A DNA stretch of 24,472 nt, taken from NCBI GenBank assembly GCA_041288095.1, contig JBGGMJ010000142.1:1-24472 (forward strand), in the 5' to 3' direction. Below, one piece after another: positions 5,046 to 22,409 of this stretch (its first letter is position 1; each line of letters opens with the position of its first letter). Source of the stretch: Myxococcota bacterium (lineage in GTDB: Bacteria; Myxococcota; XYA12-FULL-58-9; JALHOP01). Below the pieces are notes generated by a model. That model was not told the origin of the DNA. It searched no databases and saw only the letters and a list, made by a program, of their open reading frames with translations. The position numbers and the translations under genes are program-made.

Positions 5046-7265
5046 ATGAGCAACATGTTCGCGCATCTCAACCTGTCGCATTTCAGAGTCAGCGTCGAAG
5101 AGGGCATCGCTCTCGTCACCTTCGACCGAGACGGTGACAAGGTGAACTCCCTAGGCACGCCGATCATCCGCGAGATGGAGGCGGTGGTCGACGTCATCGA
5201 GCGCGAGGCGAGCATCGTCGCCGCCATCATCGTGTCCGGCAAAGAGGACACGTTCATCGCCGGCGCCGACGTTACCGAGCTCGCGGCCTATACCACCGCG
5301 GCGCAGGCGCAAGAGCTGTCGACGCGCGCTCACAAAGGGTTCGCGCGGCTCGAGGCGCTCGGCCGCGAGAAGCCGATCATCGCGGCGATTCACGGCGCTG
5401 CCCTCGGCGGCGGTCTCGAGCTGGCGCTCGCTTGCTCGGGACGCGTTGCATCGGACGCCGATGTCACCAAGCTCGGTCTGCCCGAGGTGAAGCTCGGTCT
5501 GCTCCCGGGCGCCGGCGGCACCCAGCGGCTGCCACGGCTCGTCGGCCTCACCAACGCCCTCGATCTCATCCTCTCGGGCAAGGACGTGCGCGCGAAGAAG
5601 GCGCTGAAGCTCGGTCTCGTCGACGAGGTGGTGCCGCGGCCGGTCCTGCTCGAGGCGGCCAAGCGGGCTGTAAACAAGGCCCTGCAAGGTAAGCCCTTGC
5701 GACCCGCGCGCGGGTTCACGCGCCTGCGCTCACCGCTCGCCAAGGTGCTCCGCGACATCGCGGACCCCGAGTTCCTCCAGGAAGTCGCGCTCGAGGAGAA
5801 CCCGGTCGGCCAGCGCCTGCTCTTCAAGAAAGCCAAGGAACGTCTGCTGGAGCGGACACACGGCCTGTATCCGGCACCCGAGGCGGCGCTCGACGCCATG
5901 CGGACGGGCATTCTCGAAGGCAGCGAGGCGGGCTACGCCGCGGAGGCCGAGCACTTCGGCAAGCTCGTCGTCAGTCCGGAAGCGCGCGCCTTGATCTCCA
6001 TCTTCTTCGCGCAACAGGCGACGAAGAAGGACACCGGCACCACCGCCAAGGTGGAGCCACGCGAGGTCAAGAAGCTCGGCGTGCTGGGCGGCGGCCTCAT
6101 GGGCGGAGGCATCGCCTACGTCTCCGCCACGAAGCTGCACATCCCGGTGCGCATCAACGAGGTCGACGACGCCGCCATTGGCCGAGGCCTCGCGCACGTC
6201 CGCCAGCTCATCGACAAGGACGTCGAGCGCCGCCGCACCACCCGCTTCGAAGCCGAGCGCATCCTGAGCCGGGTCACCGGCACCTCGAGCTACGACGGGT
6301 TCGCCAACGCCGACCTGGTCGTCGAAGCGGTCTTCGAGGATCTGGAGCTGAAGCGGCGTGTCCTGCTCGATGTCGAGAAGCGCGTGCCGCCGACCTGCGT
6401 CTTTGCATCGAACACGTCGTCCATTCCCATCGCAAGCATCGCGGAGGTCTCGAGCCGTCCCGAGGCCGTGCTCGGCATGCACTACTTCTCGCCGGTCGAG
6501 AAGATGCCGCTCCTCGAGGTGGTGACGACCGCCAAGACCGCGGATTGGGCGGTCGCGACAGCGGTCAAGGTCGGTAAGGCGCAGGGCAAGACGGTGATCG
6601 TGGTCCGCGATGGACCGGGGTTCTACACCTCGCGCATCCTCGCCCCTTACATGAACGAGGCCGCGTGGCTGCTCGTCGAGGGCGCATCCATCGAGGACAT
6701 CGACGCCGCGCTCGTCGAGATGGGCTTCCCCGTCGGACCACTGACCTTGCTGGACGAGGTCGGCATCGACGTCGGCAACAAGGTCGCGCACATCATGGCC
6801 AAGGCTTTCGGCAGCCGCATGAACGCGCCGGAGGCGATGGACAGCCTCATCCGCGACGGCAGGCAGGGTCGCAAAAACGGACGCGGCCTGTACGTCTACG
6901 AGAAGGGCAAGAAGCGCGGCCCCGATGCCAGCGTCTACGACCTCTTGGGCGGCAAGTCGCGGGGGCGCAGCCGCATCCCGCGGGACGAGATCCGCGAGCG
7001 TGTGTCGCTGCAGATGGTGAACGAGGCTGTTCGCTGTCTGGACGACGGCATCTTACGCTCGGCGCGCGACGGCGATATCGGCGCGGTGTTCGGCCTTGGC
7101 TTCCCACCATTCCTTGGAGGCCCGTTCCGTCATGTCGACCGCCAAGGGGCGCGGGCCGTGCTCGAACGGTTGAAGCACTACACCGCCTCGTTTGGTGAAC
7201 GCTTCCGGCCCGCCGAGGGGCTCGAGCGCCACGCCGCGGCAGGCACGACGTTCCATCCGATGTGA
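5046..7265 (+). CDS. fadJ: Fatty acid oxidation complex alpha subunit FadJ (enoyl-CoA hydratase / 3-hydroxyacyl-CoA dehydrogenase)
   Basis: Hydratase motifs FIAGAD, GGGLELALAC, LGLPEVKLGLLPGAGGTQRLPR. Dehydrogenase motifs GGGLMGGGIA, EAVFED, ASNTS, GMHYFSPVEKMPLLE, GFPPFLGGPF. Start set at ATG 5046. Confidence 0.94.
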   Translation: MSNMFAHLNLSHFRVSVEEGIALVTFDRDGDKVNSLGTPIIREMEAVVDVIEREASIVAAIIVSGKEDTFIAGADVTELAAYTTAAQAQELSTRAHKGFARLEALGREKPIIAAIHGAALGGGLELALACSGRVASDADVTKLGLPEVKLGLLPGAGGTQRLPRLVGLTNALDLILSGKDVRAKKALKLGLVDEVVPRPVLLEAAKRAVNKALQGKPLRPARGFTRLRSPLAKVLRDIADPEFLQEVALEENPVGQRLLFKKAKERLLERTHGLYPAPEAALDAMRTGILEGSEAGYAAEAEHFGKLVVSPEARALISIFFAQQATKKDTGTTAKVEPREVKKLGVLGGGLMGGGIAYVSATKLHIPVRINEVDDAAIGRGLAHVRQLIDKDVERRRTTRFEAERILSRVTGTSSYDGFANADLVVEAVFEDLELKRRVLLDVEKRVPPTCVFASNTSSIPIASIAEVSSRPEAVLGMHYFSPVEKMPLLEVVTTAKTADWAVATAVKVGKAQGKTVIVVRDGPGFYTSRILAPYMNEAAWLLVEGASIEDIDAALVEMGFPVGPLTLLDEVGIDVGNKVAHIMAKAFGSRMNAPEAMDSLIRDGRQGRKNGRGLYVYEKGKKRGPDASVYDLLGGKSRGRSRIPRDEIRERVSLQMVNEAVRCLDDGILRSARDGDIGAVFGLGFPPFLGGPFRHVDRQGARAVLERLKHYTASFGERFRPAEGLERHAAAGTTFHPM

Positions 7266-7373
7266 GCCTGTGTCACTGGGTCACCAGGACGTCGGCGGCA
7301 ACCAGGGCGAGCTATTTGCCGAGTATCGCTGGAGGACCTAGGTTGTGGGGATGTCCTCGGCGGCTGCCAATCG

Positions 7374-8156
7374 ATGAATGACGACCAACAGGCTCGGCGT
7401 GACCTGCGTCGCGACCCCCGGCGGTTGCTGATGTTGCGGGTCGACGTTCGCGAGGGCGGCGACGACCGCGCTCTCGCATCGGCGTGGACCGCCGATGTTT
7501 CGGCCGGTGGTGTATCGCTGCGCGGCGCGAAGTCTCTCGCCCGCGGCCAGATCGTCCGCATGTCGCTGTCGTTCCCCGGTTTGCTTGAGCCCATGGACGT
7601 GCTCGGGGACGTCGTCTGGGCTCAAAGCACGTTGTCGGTCGCTGGTGGAGTAGGCGTTCGCGTCTGGTCGTCGCTCGATCGCGAGCGACTCGCGCACCTG
7701 GCGCAGCTGGCCGGCCGCCCGCAAACCCGGAGAGTCCGGCCGTATCGCGTCGTCATCATGGAGACCGACCCGCTAGCGGCGCTCACCTATCGCATCGCTC
7801 TCGACGAGCTGCACCCCGTGAGCAGCGCTCACCTCGAGCTGACGCTGACCCGCGGCTGGGACGAGACGCGCGAGCAGCTCGAAGCCGCTCCAGCGGACAT
7901 GATCATCCTCGGTCTGCATCCGAAGTATCGTGACAGCAAGGAAGCACTGTCCTTCGTGCGCGGCAACGCCGCCATCGGCAACAAGAGCATCGTGGTCGCG
8001 CTCGCCGGTGGAGACGACCCCGATCTACTGCGGCATGCGAGCTTGGTCGCGGACGCGACCTTCGTGAAGCCGGTTCCGCTCGCCCGTATCGTGGACACCA
8101 TCGGGCATCTGCTGAACCGGCGGGCTGAGAAGCACGCGAACGTCGCGTACATCTGA
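7374..8156 (+). CDS. PilZ domain plus C-terminal receiver-like (probably pseudo-receiver) domain protein
   Basis: RxxxR (RRDPR) and DxSxxG (DVSAGG) PilZ motifs, GDVVW and GVGVR strands. The C-terminal half follows a REC pattern (VVIMETD, DMIILGL, FVKPV). Confidence 0.8.
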   Translation: MNDDQQARRDLRRDPRRLLMLRVDVREGGDDRALASAWTADVSAGGVSLRGAKSLARGQIVRMSLSFPGLLEPMDVLGDVVWAQSTLSVAGGVGVRVWSSLDRERLAHLAQLAGRPQTRRVRPYRVVIMETDPLAALTYRIALDELHPVSSAHLELTLTRGWDETREQLEAAPADMIILGLHPKYRDSKEALSFVRGNAAIGNKSIVVALAGGDDPDLLRHASLVADATFVKPVPLARIVDTIGHLLNRRAEKHANVAYI

Positions 8157-8189
8157 GTTATTCGGGCTTCGAGCCGTTATCGCCCTTTT

Positions 8190-8564
8190 CTACAGCTTCG
8201 CGAAGAACCTCTGCGCCGACATCGAAAGCTCCTCGGCCCTCATCCGCGCCCGTTCCCCTCCAGGCAGCCACGGCCGAACGACGTCGTACAAATCATGCGA
8301 CAAGGGCGCACCTGTCGCGGCAAGGGATACAGCCTCGTCGAGTGTCCTCTTCGCGGTAGCGTCGTCACCGCTTTGATCGGCGCACACCGCGAGCCCCAGG
8401 AGCACCTCTTGGCTACACACACCCAAGCCGCGCAGGTGCGCGAACAGTTGACGGCCACGCGTGAACTCACCGGCGAGCATTGCGTCGAGCGCGCCCTGCA
8501 TCAGCGCGTCCTCGAGCGAGCGTGGCGCCGGTGTGACCTCGTCGTGGTGGCCGAAGTTGCTCAT
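8190..8564 (-). CDS. Small TPR protein resembling SycD/LcrH (class II type III secretion) chaperones
   Basis: 124 aa with TPR-pattern helices ALMQGALDAMLAGEFTRGRQLFAHL and EVLLGLAVCADQSGDDATAKRTLDEAVSL. ATGA overlap with the upstream gene stop at 8561-8564. Confidence 0.65.
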   Translation of the reverse strand: MSNFGHHDEVTPAPRSLEDALMQGALDAMLAGEFTRGRQLFAHLRGLGVCSQEVLLGLAVCADQSGDDATAKRTLDEAVSLAATGAPLSHDLYDVVRPWLPGGERARMRAEELSMSAQRFFAKL

Positions 8565-10585
8565 GGACGCGGCGTCTCGCCGGTCAGAGCGCGAAGGAGA
8601 TTCTTCACCGGATCGAGTGGCTTCGGCACGCCGGGCCGCATGTCGCTCGCGAGCTCACGGTCGGTGGAGAGCTTGGCGCGGACATCCGCGGGCAAGTTGT
8701 CGAAGAGCTTGGGCACGCTGCGTTTCTTCAGGCTTCCCAGCACCTCGTCGAGCGTCGGCTGGCGCGCGTCCGAGAGCTGACTGACGCTGGGGCGCTCACC
8801 GTCACCCGACGGGCCCATGCGCATGACGTAGTGCCGCAGGTTCAAGTTGGCCGAGTGGCCGGCTGAGCCGAGCGCACTCGATGAGCCCTCGAGGAAGAGC
8901 TCCCAAACGCGGCGCATGGGCTCGTTGTAGAACGCCGGGTCGGTTGGCGCGAGCTTGTCCCACGCGGCGGCGAAGCTCTCCGCCCAGCGATCGAGCGTGA
9001 GCGCGTAGTCGTCACGCATCTCCGCTTCCCAAACCAGCTCGAAGCCATACTTGCGCGCGCAGACCGCGAGGTCGCCTTCCGCGGGCATGGTGCCACCGGG
9101 GAAGAAGTGCTTGCCGGTCACGGCCTCGACGAAGACGGCGTCACGCAGCGGATAGGTCATGTTCGACATGACGAGGTAGCCGCCGGGCTTCACCGCGTTC
9201 GCCATGCCCTTGAACCAGGCGTCGAGCTCGAACGGACCGGCGTGCTCGAGGACACCAGCTTGGTGGACGATATCGTACTGATGCCGATGCTCGGGCTTCA
9301 CATAATCGCGGGCGTCACCTTCGATGATGCGCACTCGATCGGACAGGCCGTTCGCTTCGATGAGCGCTGCAGCGACGCGGTTCTGCGACTCGGTACGGCC
9401 GATATTCGTGTAGTCGACGTTCGGGAAGTTGAGCGCGGTGTAGAGGCCCTGCGGCATCCAGCCGCCGCCAAACTCCGCCCATTTCACGGTCTCGCCGCGC
9501 GCCGTCTTGTCGGCGACGAGATCCATGCCCGCGCGCGCGAAGTACTCGAGCGACCGCACCTGTGCCTCGTCGAGCGAGATGCCCTTGTCTGGTCCGAACA
9601 GCCCCTCGGTGTACTTCATCACGGCGCCGAGCTGCTCGCGGAAGAGACCGGTGGGATTGCCGTAGTGATAGAGCGCGTTGTCGTGCGCTTGTTCGTAATA
9701 GCCGTTGTTGGTCGCGAAGACCTCGCGGAACCACTGCTCGGCGATGCCCAAGGGCCGAAGCTTCGAGCCCTCCTTGCCGAGCGAGGTCATGTGCATGAGC
9801 TTGCGCAGGGCTCGGTTGCCGACGATGTCGATGTCTCCCTTGACCCAGGCATCGATCAGGCCGGCATAGCCCTTGGTCGCGAGCGAGAGCTCAGCGCCCT
9901 TCTTGATGACGAAGGTGATCTCCGTCTCGCGTCCGTGGTGACTGCTATAGCGGCTGCCGTCCGCGAATTCGACGGCGATGGGATAGCGCACTGGACCGTC
10001 GACGACCTTGCGCAGCTCGTTCGCGATCTGGTTGCGGACGAGCTTCATCGGTCCAGCTTTGGACAAGGTCACCGGCGCCGGCGGCGACAGCTCGAACGGC
10101 TCGCGCAACTTTGCGACGGCGTCGCGGATCTGCCGCAGCGTATCGTCCGCCAAGGCGTACGGTGTGCCGGCGAGATCGGCCGCGGCCGCCTCGAGCTTGG
10201 CCGCGAAGGTGTCGACGTCGGCGCGGGTGAGGGCGGAACGCGTGAGCTGCACGACATTGGTGCCCAAGGCGCGAACCGCGTCGAGCTGACCATCATTGCG
10301 ATGTTGCAAGGCCCGCGTTGTCGCGGCTTGAGCGATGTCGAGCCCGCGCTGTCGGGCGAGGGCTTTGACGAGCGCGCGCACCTCGGGCGAAGCCGTGCGC
10401 ACGGCTTCGCGAGGCGCCGCGAACGGATTGACCGCGGCCACCGCCGCGAGCACGTCGTGGTCGGCGCCGAGCTTGGCTCGTGACGTCGCGAGGTAGGGAG
10501 TCGACTTGAGCCCCTCGAGGAACTTCAGCGCCGCGTCGCGGTTTGCGAATGTGTTTGCTGCGTCGACTGCGGGGAACGAAGCCAC
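8561..10585 (-). CDS. Divergent cyclopropane-fatty-acyl-phospholipid synthase-like class I SAM methyltransferase with ~180-aa N-terminal extension
   Basis: Cfa/CmaS landmarks: AGLIDAWVKGD, NALYHYG, MKY, SLDEAQ, EFGGGW, GLSDRV, DARD, LEHAG, VKPGG, FFPGG, DYALTLDRW, RRVWELFL. Start placed at GTG 10585, 6 nt after GGAGG; alternative starts are 10603 and 10591. Confidence 0.8.
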   Translation of the reverse strand: MASFPAVDAANTFANRDAALKFLEGLKSTPYLATSRAKLGADHDVLAAVAAVNPFAAPREAVRTASPEVRALVKALARQRGLDIAQAATTRALQHRNDGQLDAVRALGTNVVQLTRSALTRADVDTFAAKLEAAAADLAGTPYALADDTLRQIRDAVAKLREPFELSPPAPVTLSKAGPMKLVRNQIANELRKVVDGPVRYPIAVEFADGSRYSSHHGRETEITFVIKKGAELSLATKGYAGLIDAWVKGDIDIVGNRALRKLMHMTSLGKEGSKLRPLGIAEQWFREVFATNNGYYEQAHDNALYHYGNPTGLFREQLGAVMKYTEGLFGPDKGISLDEAQVRSLEYFARAGMDLVADKTARGETVKWAEFGGGWMPQGLYTALNFPNVDYTNIGRTESQNRVAAALIEANGLSDRVRIIEGDARDYVKPEHRHQYDIVHQAGVLEHAGPFELDAWFKGMANAVKPGGYLVMSNMTYPLRDAVFVEAVTGKHFFPGGTMPAEGDLAVCARKYGFELVWEAEMRDDYALTLDRWAESFAAAWDKLAPTDPAFYNEPMRRVWELFLEGSSSALGSAGHSANLNLRHYVMRMGPSGDGERPSVSQLSDARQPTLDEVLGSLKKRSVPKLFDNLPADVRAKLSTDRELASDMRPGVPKPLDPVKNLLRALTGETPRP

Positions 10586-10690
10586 TGACACCCTCCACGG
10601 CACTGTGATCGTGTCGACATCTTCGGCGCCTGGATGTCAGGCGTTCTCAGGTCGAGCCTGACGAGGTGACAGGGACGAAGCAGCTCCCCG

Positions 10691-11629
10691 CTACAAGCGG
10701 ATGCCGTCGCGAAGCGGCTGGGAGTAGGCCGCTTTAGCGGACTTCAGCGCTTCCGAGAGAGCGTCGTTCGCTTTGTCGGGCAGGCGCGCGTCGAGCTCGA
10801 CGTAGAGGTCGCCACGCTCGGTGCCGCGTTGGATTCCCTTGCCGCGCAATCGCAACTTGTCGCCTTGTTGACTCCGTGGCGGAACGCGCAAGGTGACGTT
10901 GCCGTCGGGTGTCGGCACTTCGATCGATGCGCCGTTGTAGGCTTCGTCGATGCTCACCGGGAGCTTGAGCTGCAAGTCGAGGCCTTGGCGCTGGAAGTGG
11001 GGGTGGGGGCGAACGCGCGTCTCGATCATCAGGTCGCCGTTACCGGCCGCGCCCGGACTGCCTTGACCGGGCACCTTCAGCTTCGAGCCGTCATCGGCGC
11101 CCGGCGGGATGCGCACGGTGACCGGCTCGGTCCGGCCTGGAATGCGCAGTTGAACCTCGGTGCCGCGAATCGCTTGCAGGAGATCGATGTCGACGGTGGC
11201 GACGACGTCGCGACCTTTTTGCGGGCCGCGGCTGCGGCGACTGCCGCGCTCGAACAGGTCGCCGAAGATGTCTCCGAACTCGAACTCGACGCCGCCACCC
11301 GGCGAAGCACCGCCGCCGAACGGAGACGCGCGGTGTGCGCCCCCGCCCATGCCGCCGGCCCAGCGCTGGTAGTTGCGCGCTTGATCCGCGTCGAAACCGC
11401 TGCGCAGGGCGGCGTCGCCGAACTCGTCGTACAGTTTGCGCTTCTCTGGGTCCGAAAGAATGTCGTTGGCGGAGGAGACTTCCTTGAAGCGTTCCTCGGC
11501 CTGCGTGTTCCCGGCGTTGACGTCAGGATGGAACTTGCGGGCAAGCTTCCGGTACGCCTTGCGGATCTCGTCTTCGCTCGCGGTGCGAGGGACGCCCAGG
11601 ACTGCGTATGGATCTTTGGCGTCGGCCAT
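10691..11629 (-). CDS. cbpA: Class B DnaJ protein (CbpA-like: J domain, G/F-rich region, C-terminal domain, no zinc finger)
   Basis: DPYAVLGV, AYRKLARKFHPDVN, EERFKE, KRKLYDEFG, G/F-rich linker, C-terminal VRIPPG, HPHFQRQGLDL, LRLRGKG, GDLYV. No CxxCxGxG repeats. Confidence 0.88.
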   Translation of the reverse strand: MADAKDPYAVLGVPRTASEDEIRKAYRKLARKFHPDVNAGNTQAEERFKEVSSANDILSDPEKRKLYDEFGDAALRSGFDADQARNYQRWAGGMGGGAHRASPFGGGASPGGGVEFEFGDIFGDLFERGSRRSRGPQKGRDVVATVDIDLLQAIRGTEVQLRIPGRTEPVTVRIPPGADDGSKLKVPGQGSPGAAGNGDLMIETRVRPHPHFQRQGLDLQLKLPVSIDEAYNGASIEVPTPDGNVTLRVPPRSQQGDKLRLRGKGIQRGTERGDLYVELDARLPDKANDALSEALKSAKAAYSQPLRDGIRL

Positions 11630-11636
11630 TACATCA

Positions 11637-11642
11637 ATTATA
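11637..11642 (-). promoter_or_regulatory. Candidate sigma70 -10 box (TATAAT) for a leaderless cbpA-like transcript
   Basis: Minus strand reads TATAAT-TGATGTA-ATG. AT-rich island in GC-rich DNA, no Shine-Dalgarno before the ATG. Confidence 0.5.
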
Positions 11643-11684
11643 AGCAGCGCTTCGTTTTTTGCTACTTAGCCGCTTGGGCCCGCG

Positions 11685-12914
11685 CTAATCGTGCTCGCGC
11701 AGGTACCTTTCGGCAAGTTGGCGCTGGCGATTGTCGAGCGCCATGGGATTTCCCTCGATCCAGACACGCTCGACCTGGGTCGACAGCTCGAAGGGGTCGC
11801 CCGACCAAAGGACCAGGTCGGCGCGCTTCCCGGCGGTGATGGAACCATAGGCGACGCCACGGTCGAAGACTTCGGCGGGCGTCGTGGTGATGGCGCGCAG
11901 CGCACCTTCGCGACTCATGCCGTTCGCGACCGCGATGCCGGCTTCGTAGCGGAGGCGGCGCGCGTTTTGATCGTCCGCGATGCCGGTCGTGAGGATGACG
12001 GTGACCCCGGCGCGCTCGAGCAAGGCCGGGAGGTCGTCACGCGCATTCAGCAGATCGAAGCCGTAGGGAAGCTGCTCGGACGGCTGGATGATGACGGGGA
12101 CGCGTGCTTCCTTGAGCTGCTTGGCGACGAGCCAAGCTTCACTCGCGCCCGCGAGCACGAGCCTTACCTTCTCCGCCTTGGCGAGATCGAGGGCGGTGAG
12201 GATATCGCTCGCGCGGTGCGCGGTCAGCACCAGCGGCAGCTTGCCGTCGAGGACAGGGTAGAGCGCTTCGAGGTGTTGTGATGACAACGAGAGCTCGCGC
12301 TCGCTCGGACGATTGGCGCTGCGGCGATGCAGGCGCGCGTCGTCGAAGGCCTGGCGAAGGGCGAGCCAGATGCCGCCGCGGCTGCCGCCGCCGCCCGCGA
12401 AATGTTTCGCGTCTTGCGACGTGATGCTGCCGAACATGGCGAGCGGCCGCGTCGGATCGGGACGGCCGGCGAGCGTACCCGTGAGATCGGCCCAGCAACC
12501 CGTGCCGCTGAGGACTTCGCCCTGCGGACTGACGACGATGCTGGTGATGCCGGCGGCGCGGGTGATGGGAATGCGGATCGACATGGGATTGTAGCCGTCG
12601 CAAACGCGGAACCCGGGAGCCAAGGCTTGCTCCTTCATGCGGTCGTCGACGGTCTCGCCCTCGAGCAACACCTCGGCGACGCCGATTTGCGAGCGCGTCT
12701 CGATGAGACCGGCGGTGAGCACCTTGCCGGTGCCGTCTACCTGCGTTGCCTGAGGCACCGGGGTAGCGAGCTTGCCTGGAGTCACGGAGACGATGCGACC
12801 CTGGTCGATGACCACGGTAGCCGATTCGATGGGCGCCGAGCCGCTCTCGATGCGAACGTTCTCGATGACCGTTGGAGCGGACAGGGTGGCCGCTAGGAGC
12901 AGGGCAATGTTCAT
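11685..12914 (-). CDS. Amidohydrolase-family protein, degenerate (probably non-catalytic) partner, exported
   Basis: Short signal-like N-terminus MNIALLLAATLSA; VDGTGKVLTAGLI, AHRASDI, ALRAITTTPAEVF, GSITAGKRADLVLWSGDPF. HxH replaced by ETRSQ. SD GGAGGTG and ATGA overlap with the upstream stop. Confidence 0.85.
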   Translation of the reverse strand: MNIALLLAATLSAPTVIENVRIESGSAPIESATVVIDQGRIVSVTPGKLATPVPQATQVDGTGKVLTAGLIETRSQIGVAEVLLEGETVDDRMKEQALAPGFRVCDGYNPMSIRIPITRAAGITSIVVSPQGEVLSGTGCWADLTGTLAGRPDPTRPLAMFGSITSQDAKHFAGGGGSRGGIWLALRQAFDDARLHRRSANRPSERELSLSSQHLEALYPVLDGKLPLVLTAHRASDILTALDLAKAEKVRLVLAGASEAWLVAKQLKEARVPVIIQPSEQLPYGFDLLNARDDLPALLERAGVTVILTTGIADDQNARRLRYEAGIAVANGMSREGALRAITTTPAEVFDRGVAYGSITAGKRADLVLWSGDPFELSTQVERVWIEGNPMALDNRQRQLAERYLREHD

Positions 12915-14365
12915 AGCTTCACCTCCGCTTCGCGGCGCGAGCCGCCGCGGTCGACCGCCGAAGTGCCGAGCTCGAAGTCGGTGGGACGCATGGGCTTGCC
13001 GTCCTCGAAGATCACCTCGCCGTCGATGAGCACGAGCTTGGTGCGCGCATAGACGCTGAAGGGACTCGCGCTCCATACGACGACGTCACCCATCTTGCCG
13101 ACCTCCAAGGTGCCCGTCTTCTCGTCGATGCCGAGTGCCCAGGCGGGATTCGCGGTCACCCAACGCAGGACCTCGTCGTCGGAGAACTTGAGACCGATCT
13201 GCTCACCCGCGGCGCGCGCCTTGGCGGCCTGTTGGTTCAAGTAGCGGACCTCGGTCGAAGAGTCGCTGTGCATGAGCGGGCGTCCCTTGGCGGCCGCGAG
13301 CAGGGCGACGTTCTGGGGGATGCCGTCGAAAGCTTCCATCTTGAAGCCCCACCAGTCCGCCCAAGTGGACACGGCGACGCCGGCTTCGGCGAAGCGGTGC
13401 GCCAGCTTGTAAGCCTCGACGGCGTGGTGGAAGGAGCGGATGCGGAACCCGAACTCCTGCGCCACGTCGAGCATGGTTTGCATGTCGTCGGCGCGGTAGC
13501 AGTGGACGTGCAAGAGAATCTTGCCGTCCATCATAGCGGTCAGAGTGTCGAGCGCGAGGTCACGCTCGGGCGCCTCGGGTGGGTCCTCTTGGTCGTCTTT
13601 CTTCTCGTTGTAGAGCTTGAGGTCGCGCTCGTAGACCTGCCACTTGCGGCGATATTCCGTGGCGCTTTGAAAGGCGACACGGAAGCCGGCGATGTCACCC
13701 ATACGGGTCGCGGGGGCGCGCCCCTTCTCGCCGTAGACGCGCTTGGGGTTCTCGCCGCATGCCATCTTCAGGCCCTGCGGCGCGCCGGGGAAACGCATGG
13801 CACGGGCATTGGTGGCGGGCTTGAGCTTGATGATCGCCGAGCGGCCGCCGATGAGGTTGGCGGAGCCGGGGAGGATTTGCACCGTGGTGACGCCGTAGCT
13901 CGCGGCGCGCGCGATGGCCGGATCTTGTGGCCAGACGGCATGCTCGGCCCAGACCTCCGCCGTCGTCGGCGAGGTCATCTCGTTTCCGTCCTGGTGGGCG
14001 TCCATGTAAGGCAGCGCGTAGACGCCCATGTGCGAGTGCGTATCGATGATGCCGGGCGTGACGAACATGCCTTTGCCGTCGACGACGCGGGCGCCAGCGG
14101 GGGCGGGGAGATCACCGGCCCCGACGGCGGCGATGAGGCCGTCCCGCACCAAGACATGGCCGGGCGAGTGCATCACGCCGGCGGCGGTCATGACGGTGGC
14201 GTTCTTGATGAGCACGGGCGGGGCGGCCGGCTTCTTGGATTCCATGTCGCCGGGTGGGGTCGGGGTGGCGGCCGGGGGGAGCGCGGTCTTTTTCGGCCCG
14301 TTGTTGGCGTTCGAGCCTGCGCAGGCGAACGTGCAGAGGAGGGCCAAGCTGAGGTAAGAGCGCAT
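12911..14365 (-). CDS. Metal-dependent amidohydrolase family protein, probable lipoprotein
   Basis: Signal peptide with Cys (MRSYLSLALLCTFAC); PGIIDTHSH, LKMACGENPKRVYG, HVHCYRADD, HHAVEAY, HSD, TANPAWALG, GTLEVGKMGDVVVWS. Confidence 0.9.
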   Translation of the reverse strand: MRSYLSLALLCTFACAGSNANNGPKKTALPPAATPTPPGDMESKKPAAPPVLIKNATVMTAAGVMHSPGHVLVRDGLIAAVGAGDLPAPAGARVVDGKGMFVTPGIIDTHSHMGVYALPYMDAHQDGNEMTSPTTAEVWAEHAVWPQDPAIARAASYGVTTVQILPGSANLIGGRSAIIKLKPATNARAMRFPGAPQGLKMACGENPKRVYGEKGRAPATRMGDIAGFRVAFQSATEYRRKWQVYERDLKLYNEKKDDQEDPPEAPERDLALDTLTAMMDGKILLHVHCYRADDMQTMLDVAQEFGFRIRSFHHAVEAYKLAHRFAEAGVAVSTWADWWGFKMEAFDGIPQNVALLAAAKGRPLMHSDSSTEVRYLNQQAAKARAAGEQIGLKFSDDEVLRWVTANPAWALGIDEKTGTLEVGKMGDVVVWSASPFSVYARTKLVLIDGEVIFEDGKPMRPTDFELGTSAVDRGGSRREAEVKL

Positions 14366-14405
14366 GGGCGAACGCCGTAGCACGGCGCCCCCGATCAAAT
14401 CACGC

Positions 14406-15569
14406 GTGAAGATCCGACCGTTCATGGCGCAATGCCTCTGGGCCTTCGGCGTGCTCGCCCCCCTCGCGGAGGTGCGCGCGGCCCCCGTGCCGGCGGCGGT
14501 CACTCTGGTCGGCCAGCGGGTAGCTCTCGACGAGACCAAGGGCGAGCTTACGGTGGAGGTCACGGTCCAGAATCATCTGGACGCGGCGCTCACCTCGGTC
14601 GAGGTTGGTTGGCTCTTGGCCGCGAGCGCCGACGCGCTGGCCGCCGTCACCGACCCGGGTGCGCTCTACCTCGCGGCGGACGACCCGAAGCTCGTGAAGC
14701 CACCGCCGGGGGTCGTAGTGCTGCGCAGGACCGTGGACGTCGCGGTCAAGGCGCGGGCCAGCGCTCCCGCGAGCTTCAAGATCCCCCTGGCGGGGCCGAT
14801 CCCCGAGGTCTACCGAACCCATATCTTGGGATACGCTTTAGCGGACGCCCGCTTGCCGCTCTTGCTGCGCTTGCTGGGCGGTAGCGCCGCCGCCGATGAA
14901 CGCGCCGCAGTGGGCTTCTTCGCCCTCGCCGGCACGGCACGAGAGCGCCTCGCCGCGCGCGCCCGGCTCGACGTCCAGCGCTGGCTCGACGAGCTGGAGC
15001 CACGCCTCGCGGCCGCCGTGCCCGAGCGCCCCGCCGCGACCGAGCTTCATGAGCGGTTGTTCGACGTGCGCGCGGTGGGAGTGCTGGGAGGTGAGCGGGC
15101 GGAGCAGCTGCTCACGAGCCTGCGCGATAGAGGCGACATCGCGGCGTTCGATGAGCTGCTCAGGGTAGTGTTGATCGACAGGTTGAGAGGGACGCGCCTG
15201 GAGACGCCGCTTGCGTTCGCGGTACCGCCGACGGCGCGGAGCTTTCGCGACGTGGTGGATGCGGCGCTGGAGGATGCGAGGCGGTTGGCGGAGCTGGCTA
15301 CGGCCGAGAGTAGAGAGCCGATGGCCGATGACCGGGTGGCGAAGGCCGATATCGCATTGCCGAAAGTCGAGAACCGCGAGCCGATCGCCGAAATCCGATT
15401 GCCGAGCGCCGATAGCGGATTACCGCTTGCCGAGAACCGGGTGCCAATTCCCGGTGACGCGCTGCCCCCGGCGGTGCGTCCTTTCGACCTGCGAGAGCAG
15501 CTCCTCGGCCTCGCGGTGGTTGTCGCGGCCGCCGTGATTACCTTATGGCTCTTGCGGAGAAACAAATGA
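14406..15569 (+). CDS. Hypothetical exported protein with C-terminal membrane anchor and a repeat-derived linker
   Basis: Signal-like N-terminus (AQCLWAFGVLAPLAEVRA), beta-rich segment (LTVEVTVQNH), helical middle, C-terminal TM plus basic tail (LLGLAVVVAAAVITLWLLRRNK). Stop overlaps the ygfZ start (ATGA). Start uncertain: GTG 14406 or ATG 14424. Confidence 0.7.
   Translation: MKIRPFMAQCLWAFGVLAPLAEVRAAPVPAAVTLVGQRVALDETKGELTVEVTVQNHLDAALTSVEVGWLLAASADALAAVTDPGALYLAADDPKLVKPPPGVVVLRRTVDVAVKARASAPASFKIPLAGPIPEVYRTHILGYALADARLPLLLRLLGGSAAADERAAVGFFALAGTARERLAARARLDVQRWLDELEPRLAAAVPERPAATELHERLFDVRAVGVLGGERAEQLLTSLRDRGDIAAFDELLRVVLIDRLRGTRLETPLAFAVPPTARSFRDVVDAALEDARRLAELATAESREPMADDRVAKADIALPKVENREPIAEIRLPSADSGLPLAENRVPIPGDALPPAVRPFDLREQLLGLAVVVAAAVITLWLLRRNK
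15300..15453 (+). repeat. Degenerate 7-bp tandem repeat array (22 units, consensus NNNNCCG) inside a CDS
   Basis: Units read ACGGCCG AGAGTAG AGAGCCG ATGGCCG ATGACCG GGTGGCG AAGGCCG ATATCGC ATTGCCG AAAGTCG AGAACCG CGAGCCG ATCGCCG AAATCCG ATTGCCG AGCGCCG ATAGCGG ATTACCG CTTGCCG AGAACCG GGTGCCA ATTCCCG; 16 of 22 end in CCG. Confidence 0.85.
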
Positions 15570-16509: not shown

Positions 16510-17970
16510 TCATGCTTTGCGCCTCGCCTGATTGGCGCGGACCAAGCGATGCACGGTGCGCCGCGCGAGACCTAGCTCCTGCGCCGTACGCGCGGTGTTC
16601 TGTCCGCTCGCCGAATACGTGCTCATCACCGCGTCGGTGATGAGGTGATCGATGCTCGAGACCGCGGCGCGTGGCGTAATGAGCAAATCGGTCGCGGTCA
16701 GCTCACGCGCATCGCTCATCACACAGGCTCGAGTCAGCGTGTTGATGAGCTCACGAACGTTTCCCGGCCAGCCATGCAGCCGCAGCTTCTCCCATGCCGC
16801 GGGGGTGAGAGTCCGCGGCGGCTGTTGTGAGCGCAGGAAGCGCTCGCTGATCTCGAGCAGGTCCTCCTGACGCTCGCGCAAAGGCGGCACCTTGAGGGTG
16901 ATGACGCTGAGGCGATGGAATAGGTCCTCACGAAAGCGGCTGGCGCGGACCATCTCCGCCAAGTTGCGGTGGCTCGCGACCACCAAGCGCACGTCGACGG
17001 GCCTCTCCACGTTCTCGCCGATGCGGCGGATGACCCGCAGCTCGACCGCCCGCAAGAGCTCGGCCTGGACGCCGGGTGACAGCTCCGCGACTTCGTCCAA
17101 GAACAAGGTCCCACCGTCCGCCGCTGCGAACGCACCGATGCGGTCGCTGTCGGCACCGGTGAACGCGCCGCGAGTGTGACCGAAGAGCTCGCTGCTCGCG
17201 AGCGTCGACGACAAGACGGCGGCGTTGATGGCGACGAACGCGCCGCCGCGGCCGCTCAATTGGTGAAGCTGGCGCGCCACGATCTCCTTGCCCGCGCCGC
17301 TCTCACCTTCGATGGTGACCGTCGCGCTGCTGGGGGCGATGCGCGCCACCTGGCTCTCGACCAGGCGCATGGCCGGCGACCGCGCCGGAGTCGGGCCGCC
17401 GTCAGGCAGGGTCGCGCGCACCTCGAGTCGCTTGCGCCCGACGCGTAACGCCGCGTGCCGCGCGAGCGTCGCCTCACCCACGCGTGTACCGTCCACGTAG
17501 GTGCCGTTGCGGCTACCGAGATCGACGACGCGGATTGCTTCGCCGGACCGCAATAGCGCGCAGTGAAAGAGCGACACGCGGCGATCGACCGTGGGGATGT
17601 CGCACGATGGGTGCCGTCCGACGAGAATGGGCCGGCCGTCGACCGGATGCTCGCGTCCCTCTGGATCGAAGACGGTCACCACCGCGCCACAGGGCAACCC
17701 CTCGTCGCTCCGCGTGCGTTCGCCCATCATGGCGCTGGGCCGGAGCAGGGGCTCGCGCATCCAGGTGAGCGACCAACCGTCGCCGGCGAAGGGCAAATCG
17801 GACGGCACCTCACGCAGTCCATCGTCGAACGCCAGGTATGCGAAGCCCTCGACGAGGACGATGGCGTGGGCGTGCGTCGCCGCGGCGATGGGCTCGGGTA
17901 AGACGTGCGCGCCGTTGGGATAGAGCAGGGCAAGGGACTGCGGACCCATGCTCCAGGTCACACGATGCAT
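16510..17970 (-). CDS. FHA-domain sigma54-dependent enhancer-binding protein (FHA-AAA+-Fis HTH)
   Basis: FHA (VGRHPSCD, VSLFHC, DLGSRNGTYVDG), Walker A GESGAGKE, SELFGHTRGAFTGA, GGTLFLDEV, FREDLFHRL, WPGNVREL, HTH TAQELGLARRTVHR. SD GGAGGAGG upstream. Confidence 0.93.
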   Translation of the reverse strand: MHRVTWSMGPQSLALLYPNGAHVLPEPIAAATHAHAIVLVEGFAYLAFDDGLREVPSDLPFAGDGWSLTWMREPLLRPSAMMGERTRSDEGLPCGAVVTVFDPEGREHPVDGRPILVGRHPSCDIPTVDRRVSLFHCALLRSGEAIRVVDLGSRNGTYVDGTRVGEATLARHAALRVGRKRLEVRATLPDGGPTPARSPAMRLVESQVARIAPSSATVTIEGESGAGKEIVARQLHQLSGRGGAFVAINAAVLSSTLASSELFGHTRGAFTGADSDRIGAFAAADGGTLFLDEVAELSPGVQAELLRAVELRVIRRIGENVERPVDVRLVVASHRNLAEMVRASRFREDLFHRLSVITLKVPPLRERQEDLLEISERFLRSQQPPRTLTPAAWEKLRLHGWPGNVRELINTLTRACVMSDARELTATDLLITPRAAVSSIDHLITDAVMSTYSASGQNTARTAQELGLARRTVHRLVRANQARRKA

Positions 17971-19386: not shown

Positions 19387-20562
19387 ATGGTTTCGGTTGT
19401 TGGAATTCCAGGCTCGAGCTCCGTCGCCAATCGACAGGGCGACGCCCTCACGAGCGACCAGAGTCGCCGCCTCGATGCAGCCAGAAAAGATCTGGAATAT
19501 CAGGGTTCTATGGTGACGCCAGGGGCCTTGGCTGCGTCCTCGGGGCTGAGCGTCGACCTCGCGACCGAGTACCTGCGCGGGAAGGGCGCGGCGACGGGCG
19601 AGCTGCCGACGACTCAGATCATGCTCGATTTCATCGCTGCCCGTGCCGCCCGCGCCACCATCGACCATGCCATAGCCAAAGCTCAGGAGTCGCTGCCGGC
19701 GCTCTACGCACCGCCGCCGAAGCCCGCGACCGATCTGCTCGAGCAGCGCCCCCCGCACCTGCGGCGCCGCTACCCCGATCTCGTGGCGTGGGACCGCGGC
19801 ATCTACAAGGCTTTCCCCATCGGCGTCGTCCTCGGACTCGCCCCTTACTTCTATCTCTCGACGCACGACCACAAGCCCGCGATAGCGCTCGCCGCGAGCG
19901 CGCTCGTTGCCGGTGTCGTCACCGCGCTCCCGGCGCTGCGCAACGCCGTCGCCAACTTCTTCGAGCGTCGGGCGATCGCGAAGGCCAACACGCAGATCAG
20001 CCTCGACGAGGAGAAGCAGGTCGAGGCCTTCAAGGTCTCACGCGAGGCCAACGCCGACCGCATCAAACAGCAGCAAGACGAGCTCGACGCCTGGGTCGCC
20101 GGCAATGCCGCGGCGGCCGACAAGCGCGCTCACAGCATCACCAGCGTCCACCTCGAGCCCGTCCGCAACGCTCTCGAGGCCGTGAAGGACACCCAGCTGC
20201 GCAAGCACATCGCAGACGTAGCCAAGCCCCTCCTCGAGCAGCTCTTGCACACGCGGCGTTCCGAGCTCAGCGTCGGCGTGGCGGCGGACGCCGAGTCGTG
20301 GATTGCGCTGGCTCACAGCGCCGGCTCTCCCTCGGCGGGAACCCTGCTCGGCTTTGCCATCGACCATTTCAATCCGTCCGATCCCAAGGAACGCTACTGG
20401 GCCGAGGTGAACCTCGCCGCGATCAAGGATGAGTCATCGGCTGCTATCGCGGATGCATACCGAGCGCGCCTGTATGAACGTGACGCGGCGCGGTCTCCGG
20501 GTCACGCGGGCGAGCAGGTCCGCACTCTAGTCATGCTCAAGCGCTACGGGAGCACGGTCTAG
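19387..20562 (+). CDS. Hypothetical membrane protein (Ser/Gly-rich N-terminus, central hydrophobic hairpin, coiled coil)
   Basis: 391-aa ORF with GC3-rich codons and SD GGGGA. Hydrophobic segments AFPIGVVLGLAPYFYL and AIALAASALVAGVVTALPAL are followed by a charged helical region. No family recognised. Confidence 0.7.
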   Translation: MVSVVGIPGSSSVANRQGDALTSDQSRRLDAARKDLEYQGSMVTPGALAASSGLSVDLATEYLRGKGAATGELPTTQIMLDFIAARAARATIDHAIAKAQESLPALYAPPPKPATDLLEQRPPHLRRRYPDLVAWDRGIYKAFPIGVVLGLAPYFYLSTHDHKPAIALAASALVAGVVTALPALRNAVANFFERRAIAKANTQISLDEEKQVEAFKVSREANADRIKQQQDELDAWVAGNAAAADKRAHSITSVHLEPVRNALEAVKDTQLRKHIADVAKPLLEQLLHTRRSELSVGVAADAESWIALAHSAGSPSAGTLLGFAIDHFNPSDPKERYWAEVNLAAIKDESSAAIADAYRARLYERDAARSPGHAGEQVRTLVMLKRYGSTV

Positions 20563-22409
20563 CGGCACTCGTTGTGCTTGCTCTTCGCCGCCAAGTGGAC
20601 GCTGCTGTCCGGCCTGGTGATCGACATCGCCGTCTGCAATCGCGAACACGACGCCGGGTCGCTGCCGTCGGCGCGCGCCAACATCTCGGCGGCTTGGGTC
20701 TCGAGCTTGTTCAAGGCGCGGAGGATGGTCTCGTTGTCCGGCGCGAAGCTCTGCGCCTTGTACCAGTGGACGAAAGCTTCCTGGTTGTCGCCGCGGAGCT
20801 GGGCGTTTTCGCCGAGGTCGAAGAGCTCGCTCGCGATCTTGCGCTGCAGGTTACTGCTGACGGTGCTGCTCTGCGACGCGGGCATGATGGTCGCGTCGAT
20901 CGCCAACGCGTGCTCGAGCAAGCGCACGACGCGCTGTGACTCGTCCGCCGAAGCGGCTTGCTCAGCGGCATCGCGGGTGCGCTGAATCTCGACCAGCGAC
21001 GACAATAGGCGCGACACGGCTTCGCGCCCGGATTGCGAACGCGCCTTCTCGATGGCGGTGCTGACGTCGCCGCTCATGTACGCGAGAACGATCTCGCGGA
21101 CCTCGGCGTCGGGGTAGCGCGCCTGCAGCGCCAGCTCTTCGGGCGTCTGTGGCGGCTGCCAAGGCGAGAAGCGCATTTTGGCGACACGCATCGACTCCTC
21201 GACCTCGCCGAGTAACGCCTTGCCGCTCACCGATTCCGGCTTGTAGCGCAGGTGCTCGATGACCTTGTCGCGGCAGCGGACCCATTGCCGGTCGCGGCAG
21301 AGCGCTTGCGCGGCGTTGTACGCGTCGGTCGCGAGCAAGGTGCGGGCGCTCGCCGCGACACCCGCGGCCTCCTTGCCGATGGCCGAGCGCAAGGGGATCG
21401 AGTCCGCGAGGTCCAAGGCCAGACGTGGTCGATTCTGGTTGAGCGCGGTTCGGGCCTGCTCCAAGGCGCGACTCGATTCGCGCCCTTGGTCGACCGTCGA
21501 TAGGCCGTCGTGCGCCGCCAGATTGACCGGGTCGCTGTCGAGGACTTGCGCGAACGCTTTCGTCGCTTCTTCCCAGTGGGCGCGGTCGAGCTCTTCGCGA
21601 CCACGCAAGAGGCCGTCTTCGACCATGCGACCGTAGGCTGCTTCGGCGGGACTCATGCCCTCGGGCGCGCGCGGCCCGGCATGCGACGCCGCGATCACCA
21701 CCACGATGACCAGCAGCACCACCGACAGACCACCGATGCCGGCGGCGAGCTTCACGGTGCTGTCGCTGTGCGCGAAACCCATCCACACTTGCTTGGCGCG
21801 GTTGAGAGAGACCCGGCCGGCGCGGCCGAACTTGAAGTCGATGTTGCCAAAGCGGACAGTGTCGCCCGCCTTGAGCTCGCGGCGGCCGACTTTGACACCG
21901 TTGACGAAGGTGCCGTTGCTGCTCGAGAGGTCCTCGACGATGACCGAGCCGGGCTCCACCGTGAGCACCGCGTGCGTGCGCGACACCGAGACGTCGGGGA
22001 TGACGATGGCGGCGCCCTCGACGCGGCCGACCTCGAGCTCGCCGACCGGCAGCATGAAGACCTGATCGCGTACCGGCGGCACGCGGCCGGTGAGGGTGAA
22101 GGTCACTTGCTCGCGCGCGTTGTCGGAGAGCAGCTTCACCGCGAAGCCGCCGACGTCGAGCTCGACGCCGGGATTCATCTTGCGCGCGCCGCTGAGCGGT
22201 TGTCCGCCCAAGAGGACGCCGTTCACGCTCCCGAGGTCTTCGATGTAATACGAGCCCCCGCGTCGAAACACGCGGGCGTGGCGTCGCGAGACCTTGCGGT
22301 CGCGCAGCGGAATCGCAACCTGTGGATCACGCCCGAGCACGTACTCGTCGTCGACGAGGTCGACGCGTCGCTCCTCGTGGCTCGGATGCGTGATGACCAG
22401 CTGCGGCAT
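20559..22409 (-). CDS. FHA-FHA-TM-TPR/helical protein, positional analogue of the Myxococcus KilD FHA protein
   Basis: Two FHA domains (LGRDP, VSRRH, GSVNG; VGRVE, VSRTH, SSSNGT), one TM helix (AAGIGGLSVVLLVIVVVIAA), TPR-like helices (WEEATKAFAQVLDSDPVN; AFVHWYKAQSFAPDN). Starts 7 nt after the ATPase stop. Confidence 0.85.
   Translation of the reverse strand: MPQLVITHPSHEERRVDLVDDEYVLGRDPQVAIPLRDRKVSRRHARVFRRGGSYYIEDLGSVNGVLLGGQPLSGARKMNPGVELDVGGFAVKLLSDNAREQVTFTLTGRVPPVRDQVFMLPVGELEVGRVEGAAIVIPDVSVSRTHAVLTVEPGSVIVEDLSSSNGTFVNGVKVGRRELKAGDTVRFGNIDFKFGRAGRVSLNRAKQVWMGFAHSDSTVKLAAGIGGLSVVLLVIVVVIAASHAGPRAPEGMSPAEAAYGRMVEDGLLRGREELDRAHWEEATKAFAQVLDSDPVNLAAHDGLSTVDQGRESSRALEQARTALNQNRPRLALDLADSIPLRSAIGKEAAGVAASARTLLATDAYNAAQALCRDRQWVRCRDKVIEHLRYKPESVSGKALLGEVEESMRVAKMRFSPWQPPQTPEELALQARYPDAEVREIVLAYMSGDVSTAIEKARSQSGREAVSRLLSSLVEIQRTRDAAEQAASADESQRVVRLLEHALAIDATIMPASQSSTVSSNLQRKIASELFDLGENAQLRGDNQEAFVHWYKAQSFAPDNETILRALNKLETQAAEMLARADGSDPASCSRLQTAMSITRPDSSVHLAAKSKHNECR

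Follow-up and report, generated by a model that had tools for sequence, protein, structure and literature searches.

A predicted Cfa/CMAS-family methyltransferase with two orphan appendages and a translationally coupled TPR-like partner in a Myxococcota bacterium

We have analyzed a stretch of 24,472 nucleotides from a Myxococcota bacterium (assembly GCA_041288095.1, contig JBGGMJ010000142.1, positions 1 to 24,472; hereafter the window) that carries an unusual pair of genes on its minus strand. Gene 1 (8561-10585) runs from a GTG start codon at 10585 to a TGA stop codon at 8561-8563 and encodes a 674-residue protein that we assign to an extended form of the Cfa/CMAS family of S-adenosylmethionine (SAM)-dependent methyltransferases. 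Gene 2 (8190-8564) is an open reading frame for a 124-residue acidic protein of an orphan family, which resembles tetratricopeptide repeat (TPR) proteins. The stop codon of gene 1 and the start codon of gene 2 overlap in the tetranucleotide ATGA (8561-8564, minus strand). This overlap is read directly from the sequence and is found again, with the same 4-nt length, at 12034-12037 of the sister locus L001, in agreement with the two-gene unit proposed in a preliminary description of this DNA. The gene pair is real and conserved, with the pairing directly seen in both the window and L001, and the two genes are translationally coupled through the ATGA overlap.

The reading frame of gene 1 is listed as 8561-10603 on the minus strand, giving a 680-residue reading from a GTG at 10603. 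L001 has no start codon at the positions that correspond to this GTG and to a second upstream GTG at 10591. By contrast, the GTG at 10585 and the GGAGG ribosome-binding site lying 6 nt upstream of it (10592-10596, minus strand, as read from the sequence) are common to the window and L001. Because only this combination is conserved in the sister locus, we define gene 1 as 8561-10585, and the shared start supports the coordinate given in the preliminary description. The resulting length of 674 residues is that of the homologs P0001, P0020 and P0021, and the homologs P0001, P0003 and P0004 span the full length of gene 1. A public record for a protein that is 99% identical to the gene 1 product (P0002, 501 residues, annotated as 'class I SAM-dependent methyltransferase') begins inside the gene, at the TTG codon at 10066 (10064-10066). 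With this start, 173 residues are lost that evolve under purifying selection and are retained in relatives, and it is probably a start-codon miscall. There is a lesson here for annotation, in that a near-identical public protein loses 173 conserved residues through an internal TTG start.

The core of the gene 1 product is, judged by sequence comparison, a complete two-domain methyltransferase of the Cfa/CMAS family. The first domain is a Cfa-type N-terminal domain of the lipid-binding type, which covers residues ~180-290 (9716-10048, minus strand) and aligns to the Lactobacillus acidophilus Cfa structure 5z9o and to the N-terminus of Escherichia coli Cfa. These alignments confirm that the Cfa-like body begins at the Met codon at 10048-10046, as had been proposed. 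The match of this domain to DUF7884 in Pfam is weak and sub-threshold (E 0.013). The second domain, a class I SAM methyltransferase catalytic domain of the CMAS type, covers residues ~300-571 (8873-9688, minus strand) and is assigned from Pfam and from alignments with E. coli K-12 Cfa and 6bqc. The Pfam CMAS match (PF02353) extends over residues 306-577 of the 680-residue reading, with E 2.3e-25 and 89.9 bits against a cutoff of 27. Residues 17-380 of 5z9o align to gene 1 residues 207-601 (E 5.8e-16), and solved structures 7qos and 6bqc also align. E. coli K-12 Cfa (b1661) can be aligned from its N-terminus, including the N-domain, at ~25% identity. The SAM motif is preserved as E-F-G-G-G-W. 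There is no transmembrane-like segment in the gene 1 protein of the window (highest 19-residue hydropathy 1.05) and no signal peptide, and P0001 and P0003 likewise have neither by hydropathy and inspection.

In cyclopropane synthases the active-site bicarbonate is held by five residues, C139, E239, H266, I268 and Y317 in E. coli Cfa numbering, as set out in passages of PMC3132707. At the equivalent positions the gene 1 product keeps E239 and Y317 and carries Glu in place of C139, Ser in place of H266 and Met in place of I268. These five residues (E, E, S, M, Y) are invariant across the rows of the gene 1 family alignment. I268 binds bicarbonate through its backbone. The exchanges of C139 to Glu and H266 to Ser may, on sequence grounds, signal a product other than a cyclopropane ring. 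They do not exclude cyclopropanation, because H266 and C139 are variable in active plant enzymes too: the relevant passages of PMC3132707 give Gln and Ser, respectively, at these positions in active cotton cyclopropane synthases. Gene 1 misses the cutoffs of the NCBIfam equivalog families, reaching 92.7 bits against 600 for the best of them (NF053839) and 70.8 bits against 400 for PRK11705. Given these sub-cutoff scores and the altered ligand positions, we treat the lipid substrate and the reaction as assumptions.

The core is flanked by two orphan appendages. The N-terminal extension comprises residues 1-179 (10049-10585, minus strand) and is Ala-rich and basic, with an isoelectric point (pI) of 9.45. 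AlphaFold2 (AF2) places helices over residues 36-171 with confidence values (pLDDT) of 63-83, within an otherwise poor model. A linker at the end of the extension, LSPPAPV, is read from the sequence at 10070-10090 (minus strand). Both the Ala-rich helical extension of ~180 residues and the Pro linker ahead of Met 10048 had been noted in the preliminary description, and both are borne out. The same is true of the C-terminal tail, originally estimated at ~70 residues, which we find to extend about 84 residues past the end of the Cfa homology (residues ~591-674; 8564-8815, minus strand). With a pI of 9.3 the tail is basic, and it contains many proline and charged residues; its motifs PK..D.LP.D and R.G.P.P are preserved as far as the 51% identical homolog P0004. 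Searches with the N-terminal extension gave nothing significant in Pfam (best DUF5798, E 0.019), among PDB sequences (best E 0.44) or among Atlas features. The tail had no Pfam match and no significant match among PDB sequences or in the Atlas, and comparison of the extension and the tail with Atlas structures gave TM values of 0.40 or below.

We used the method of Nei and Gojobori to estimate the ratio of nonsynonymous to synonymous substitution rates (dN/dS) between the window and L001. The methyltransferase body is the most constrained part of the pair (dN/dS 0.031, dS 0.69), followed by the Cfa N-domain (dN/dS 0.064, dS 0.60). A relaxed rate of 0.17-0.19, compared with 0.03-0.06 for the core, is common to the N-terminal extension (residues 2-179; dN/dS 0.17, dS 0.90), the tail (dN/dS 0.166, dS 0.56) and gene 2 (dN/dS 0.188, dS 0.58). 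The GC content of third codon positions is 0.78-0.86 throughout both genes. The extension is also kept at the protein level, with 90% identity in P0001 and 76% in P0003; in P0004 (51%) only its second half is kept, with conservation from about residue 110 onward. These patterns of substitution indicate that both open reading frames are real genes and that the N-terminal extension is translated. The earlier suggestion that gene 1 is longer than an ordinary Cfa therefore stands, a start at 10048 being ruled out by the dN/dS of 0.17, by the conservation of the extension in homologs, and by the shared GTG and GGAGG.

The gene 2 product is a 13.4-kDa protein with a pI of 5.25, and values of 4.8-5.7 are found across family members. 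Its AF2 model (pLDDT 76) is all-helical, with seven helices that amount to about two TPR pairs and a C-terminal cap. The family has invariant residues that include C-A-D-Q (61-64) and W-L-P-G-G (99-103). The preliminary description of gene 2 as a 124-residue TPR protein is in line with this model and with the TPR proteins that it matches in Foldseek searches, while the Pfam TPR matches are sub-threshold (TPR_19, E 0.022; TPR_6, E 0.043).

That description went further and saw in gene 2 the residue pattern of class II chaperones of type III secretion systems (T3SSs), the group that contains SycD and LcrH. The sole trace of such a pattern is a weak and non-specific match to TIGR02552 (LcrH_SycD). 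This is the only NCBIfam match of gene 2, and its 17.4 bits (E 0.0028) fall far short of the cutoff of 104.8. The similarity is in register over two TPR motifs, with gene 2 residues 23-81 matching model positions 23-81, and a weak match is found in all nine family members (best E 2.1e-4), which stand for about three independent lineages. Two unrelated TPR proteins recovered by the gene 2 profile search served as controls. P0016, which has a capsule-synthesis domain in addition to its TPRs, reached 66.2 bits with TIGR02552 as its second-best match, and P0017 reached 30.5 bits with TIGR02552 as its best match. Since both outscore gene 2, TIGR02552 attracts any TPR protein within NCBIfam, and a match below its cutoff should not count in favor of a type III chaperone. 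When all PDB sequences were searched with the gene 2 profile at E ≤ 10, five chains were recovered, among which there was no SycD, IpgC, PcrH or other T3SS chaperone. Structural comparison is similarly unspecific. A Foldseek search of the PDB with the gene 2 model gave no match at E ≤ 0.001, and at E values of ~0.1-0.3 variants of IpgC (TMq 0.50-0.55) are scattered among Hip, Sgt2, Hop, MamA, subunits of the APC and designed TPRs (TMq 0.50-0.61). IpgC itself is matched at E 0.1 with TMq 0.52, and SycD (2vgy) gives TMq 0.38. In an Atlas feature search, two small TPR clusters auto-named 'Type III secretion protein' rank 5 and 13 among generic TPR clusters. We have consequently rejected the assignment of gene 2 to the SycD/LcrH class, given the TIGR02552 score below cutoff, the lack of a chaperone in the PDB profile search and the unspecific Foldseek result; what the profile comparison returns is the behavior of a generic TPR protein, an outcome that the preliminary description had itself named as refuting its proposal. 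By sequence and by model, gene 2 encodes a TPR-like protein whose resemblance to class II chaperones is that of any short TPR protein.

Both families are very rare. Word-based searches with gene 1, and with its alignment, returned the same six proteins among 8000 scored candidates, four of them members of the gene 1 family and two of them ordinary CMAS proteins at 25-27% identity. The architecture of gene 1 is represented by 4 protein clusters among 5.8 billion proteins. A scan of genome contigs yielded a single related locus among 90 pattern matches, namely L001 (contig CAZAER010000006.1). This locus runs collinear with the window, to which it is 83-86% identical in nucleotide sequence, and being so close it adds little through its synteny. 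For gene 2, five other clusters, with identities of 73-83%, came from a word-based search, and its homologs overall range from 48 to 83%. A HMMER profile of gene 2 run against 1.84 billion representatives gave eight matches at E ≤ 0.001, of which three are small homologs (P0010, P0013 and P0014). The other five, which are long repeat or multi-domain proteins (TPR, PPR, Hcp/cadherin, or a repeat protein belonging to neither the TPR nor the PPR family), were dropped as spurious or generic.

The gene 1 homolog P0001 and the gene 2 homolog P0011 both lie on contigs of 3179 nt, and the homologs P0003 and P0024 both lie on contigs of 8907 nt. These equal sizes suggest that the pairing probably extends to two further lineages, which would make four in all. 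In the lineage of P0003 and P0024 the enzyme is 76% identical to that of the window, and the partner only 48%. This conservation bears on whether gene 2 has anything to do with the enzyme. It might be merely co-transcribed, with the extensions serving the oligomerization or membrane targeting of an ordinary Cfa paralogue. Such an arrangement would fit the common and varied occurrence of TPR proteins, the lack of a detectable gene 2 homolog accompanying P0004, and the putative status of an interaction between the two products. It is difficult to reconcile with the retention of the pairing and the 4-nt overlap in the lineages examined, or with the finding that two extremely rare families (four gene 1 clusters in 5.8 billion proteins and three small gene 2 representatives in 1.84 billion) nevertheless occur together, and we consider it unlikely.

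The interpretation that we favor, with a probability of roughly one half, is that the pair encodes a cytoplasmic, membrane-acting lipid methyltransferase and a dedicated TPR partner that binds basic appendages of the enzyme. From this standpoint, gene 1 is a lineage-restricted and divergent member of the Cfa/CMAS family. Working on the membrane from its cytoplasmic side, the enzyme would transfer a one-carbon unit onto double bonds in the acyl chains of phospholipids. To a complete Cfa core, evolution would have added a helical domain at the N-terminus and a largely unstructured tail at the C-terminus, both of them basic. The gene 2 protein would be made in a fixed ratio to the enzyme through the ATGA overlap, and this acidic TPR protein would bind one of the basic appendages as a stabilizing chaperone, an adaptor or a regulatory subunit. 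There is an appropriate charge contrast between the two proteins, with gene 2 acidic in six family members (pI 4.8-5.7) and the extension and tail basic (pI 9.45 and 9.3), and the relaxed rate of evolution that gene 2 shares with both appendages also fits a partnership. The physical interaction, lipid substrate, cytoplasmic location and chemistry that we infer are the most likely ones. A complex prediction from a 5-row alignment of gene 1 and a 9-row alignment of gene 2 scored 0.00 in both runs; these were made without controls, and the result counts neither way.

Several observations weigh against this interpretation. Binding between the two gene products is putative. The scores against the curated Cfa equivalogs are far under their cutoffs (92.7 against 600 bits at best), and two of the bicarbonate-ligand positions are altered. 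The full-length AF2 model of gene 1, built from a 5-row alignment, is poor (mean pLDDT 51) and could not sustain a fold search. No gene 2 homolog attributable to the organism of P0004 was found among the 1.84 billion representatives, and P0004 itself has a signal-type N-terminus that argues against a purely cytoplasmic role in its lineage. This N-terminus consists of 26 extra residues ahead of the N-terminal extension which, by inspection and hydropathy, are shaped like a cleavable Sec signal peptide, with an MKK start, a hydrophobic core of 14 residues (12-residue hydropathy 2.45) and a small-residue cleavage site. The SAM motif of P0004 is intact. In composition, P0004 is less Ala-rich than gene 1.

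The preliminary description proposed that gene 1 is an effector and gene 2 its T3SS chaperone. In a broader formulation, a T3SS or some other machine that depends on contact would deliver the enzyme to prey or host cells, with the N-terminal extension of the enzyme acting as secretion signal and chaperone-binding region and with gene 2 as the secretion chaperone. Gene 2 is indeed small, acidic and TPR-like and adjoins its presumed client, the extension and tail are orphan sequences, two Atlas TPR clusters bear a type III secretion name, and the combination of a Sec-type signal and an intact SAM motif in P0004 suggests that one or more members of the family are exported. Because such an enzyme depends on SAM, it would need to act where SAM is available, and therefore in another cell. 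However, gene 2 lies outside the SycD/LcrH group, scoring 17.4 bits against 104.8 where unrelated TPR proteins score higher, and neither the PDB profile search, which lacks class II chaperones, nor Foldseek, which does not separate IpgC from generic TPR proteins, favors such a function. The enzyme also does not look like a suitable client. Class II chaperones serve hydrophobic, membrane-inserting translocators through a P/VxLxxP motif, and are not known to serve enzymes. Gene 1 has neither a transmembrane segment nor a motif of the PxLxxP type: the pattern [PV]xLxxP is absent from gene 1, P0001 and P0003, and its one occurrence in P0004 lies inside the catalytic body. The protein of the window has no signal peptide, and its gene shows no compositional anomaly and sits among housekeeping genes.

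There is no T3SS export gene in the 24.5 kb of the window, and what Pfam matches to 'Yop-YscD_cpl' at 16.5-24.5 kb are FHA domains. This region contains an FHA-fused secretion ATPase of the Tad/CpaF type (22417-24468, minus strand; 683 residues, N-terminal FHA), which scores 317 bits against TIGR03819, below the cutoff of 373. It is accompanied by a double-FHA protein (20559-22409, minus strand; 616 residues) and, nearby, by a protein combining FHA with a sigma-54 activator (16510-17970, minus strand). The ATPase reading frame, about 12 kb from the gene pair, extends to within 4 bases of the end of the window, so that any further genes of a cluster would lie beyond it. An FHA-fused ATPase architecture is described for KilF, of the Myxococcus xanthus contact-killing apparatus, in passages of Seef et al. 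(PMC8460266). By analogy, the KilF-like ATPase and FHA proteins at 16.5-24.5 kb, which would suit delivery by a contact-dependent machine, may mean that the organism carries a contact-killing apparatus. The background on contact killing by M. xanthus with a Tad (Kil) system and an atypical T3SS that was offered in the preliminary description is correct according to PMC12075869. On the other side, the portions of PMC10849154 dealing with this T3SS* describe it as lacking needle and translocon homologs, and its co-occurrence with Tad as confined to the Cystobacterineae. The P0004 signal peptide and the KilF-like ATPase are leads for export rather than evidence that gene 1 is exported. A literature search for Cfa-type effectors, lipid-methylating effectors and Cfa-TPR pairs found none, as judged by titles and the openings of abstracts. 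With gene 2 outside the SycD/LcrH group, no transmembrane segment or motif in gene 1 and no T3SS gene in the window, delivery of the enzyme as an effector with gene 2 as its secretion chaperone is unsupported, and we consider it decidedly improbable. The anatomy of the pair is unusual; the secretion story is not supported by any test that was run.

Alternatively, the genes could form a toxin-immunity pair, in which gene 1 would be an exported lipid-modifying toxin that gene 2 blocks in the producer. The layout, in which a small orphan gene overlaps the end of a large enzyme gene, is typical of such pairs, the P0004 signal peptide would fit, and gene 2 has changed far more quickly than the enzyme (48% against 76% identity in the lineage with the 8907-nt contigs). 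However, the core of the enzyme is under strong purifying selection (dN/dS 0.03), like a housekeeping enzyme, and the protein of the window has no export signal. No trafficking or polymorphic-toxin domain is found in the N-terminal extension by Pfam at E ≤ 1, where DUF5798 (E 0.019) is the only match. The pair has no PADLOC or toxin family match apart from one to mad2, which is of the generic methyltransferase-fold kind. We know of no toxic effect of a Cfa-type reaction. A toxin-immunity function is accordingly very doubtful. As a defense assignment, the mad2 match (E 5e-7 over 71 residues) was rejected because it reflects the methyltransferase fold only. We also think it unlikely that the family as a whole consists of lipid methyltransferases acting outside the cytoplasm of the producer, which would remodel the membrane lipids of a target with the target's own SAM, travel by the Sec route in the P0004 lineage and by a Kil/Tad-like machine in Myxococcota, and use gene 2 as a secretion chaperone or immunity factor.

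The genes around the pair are housekeeping genes, as previously noted, and include those for a thiolase, a FadB-like protein, a PilZ-domain protein, a DnaJ/CbpA-like protein and two amidohydrolases. The GC content of gene 1 is in line with that of its neighbors. The CbpA-like gene (10691-11629, minus strand) lies 105 nt upstream of gene 1 on the same strand and encodes a J-protein of 312 residues, with a J-domain and DnaJ C-terminal domains and no DnaJ zinc-finger among its Pfam matches. It is preceded on the same strand by the two amidohydrolase genes (11685-13076 and 12911-14563). The two amidohydrolase genes, the CbpA-like gene, gene 1 and gene 2 could form a single operon, and no promoter or terminator was detected between these five genes. 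More widely, there is no sigma-70-like promoter in 7200-11900, and terminator-like sites are not above expectation anywhere useful. Neither the 115-nt stretch at 10586-10700 that spans the intergenic leader (z 0.44) nor the region following gene 2 at 8100-8200 (z -0.56) folds better as RNA than shuffled sequences, and Rfam gave no matches in the window. The PilZ-domain protein, which belongs to the paralogous family TIGR02266, is encoded on the plus strand at 7374-8156 and converges on gene 2 with a gap of 33 nt; this family is expanded in myxobacteria. Further away are a GGDEF response regulator (1267-2844) and two long plus-strand open reading frames of 401 and 391 residues (14364-15569 and 19387-20562), which have no Pfam or NCBIfam match and each overlap alternative reading frames on the other strand or in another frame.

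Comparison with characterized systems places the pair in context. Bacterial Cfa proteins (E. coli b1661 and 6bqc; L. acidophilus 5z9o) have the same N-domain and class I SAM methyltransferase core and can be aligned with the gene 1 product end to end, with the SAM motif, E239 and Y317 conserved. Gene 1 differs from them in its low sequence identity (~25%), its ~179-residue N-terminal domain and ~84-residue tail, its internal insertions, the C139E, H266S and I268M exchanges, and its coupled partner gene. The plant cyclopropane synthases offer a partial parallel. Their own extension is a different and larger domain, and they are eukaryotic microsomal enzymes which, unlike gene 1, have no TPR partner. 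In cotton GhCPS and Sterculia CPS the catalytic domain lies behind a long N-terminal extension, as implied by the residue numbers I739, E710 and Y794 given in passages of PMC3132707, which also indicate that activity is retained with H266 and C139 substituted (Q and S); gene 1 is substituted at both positions as well.

For gene 2, the class II T3SS chaperones (SycD/LcrH, IpgC, PcrH and CesD) are comparable as small, acidic, all-helical TPR-type proteins encoded beside their clients. These chaperones have three TPR pairs in about 150-170 residues, whereas gene 2 has about two TPR pairs in 124 residues, an enzyme client without transmembrane segments, and no T3SS genes nearby. The TPR domains of the co-chaperones Hip, Sgt2/SGT and Hop (TPR2A) match gene 2 as well as or better than IpgC does (TMq 0.55-0.56). 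They bind short, extended, charged tails of their clients, which is the mode of binding that we propose for gene 2 with the basic C-terminal tail or N-terminal extension of the enzyme. Unlike gene 2, they are eukaryotic and have other ligands, and there is no sequence relationship.

Enzymes of the Cfa family are regarded as housekeeping or stress enzymes that act alone. In the present pair, a complete Cfa-type core, as predicted from its sequence, is joined to two orphan appendages and coupled to a TPR-like partner. If the partner binds the appendages, the pair would represent a new way to control or target a membrane-lipid methyltransferase. Should the signal peptide of P0004 prove real, the family would have a member that modifies lipids with SAM after export, which would be unusual but is testable.

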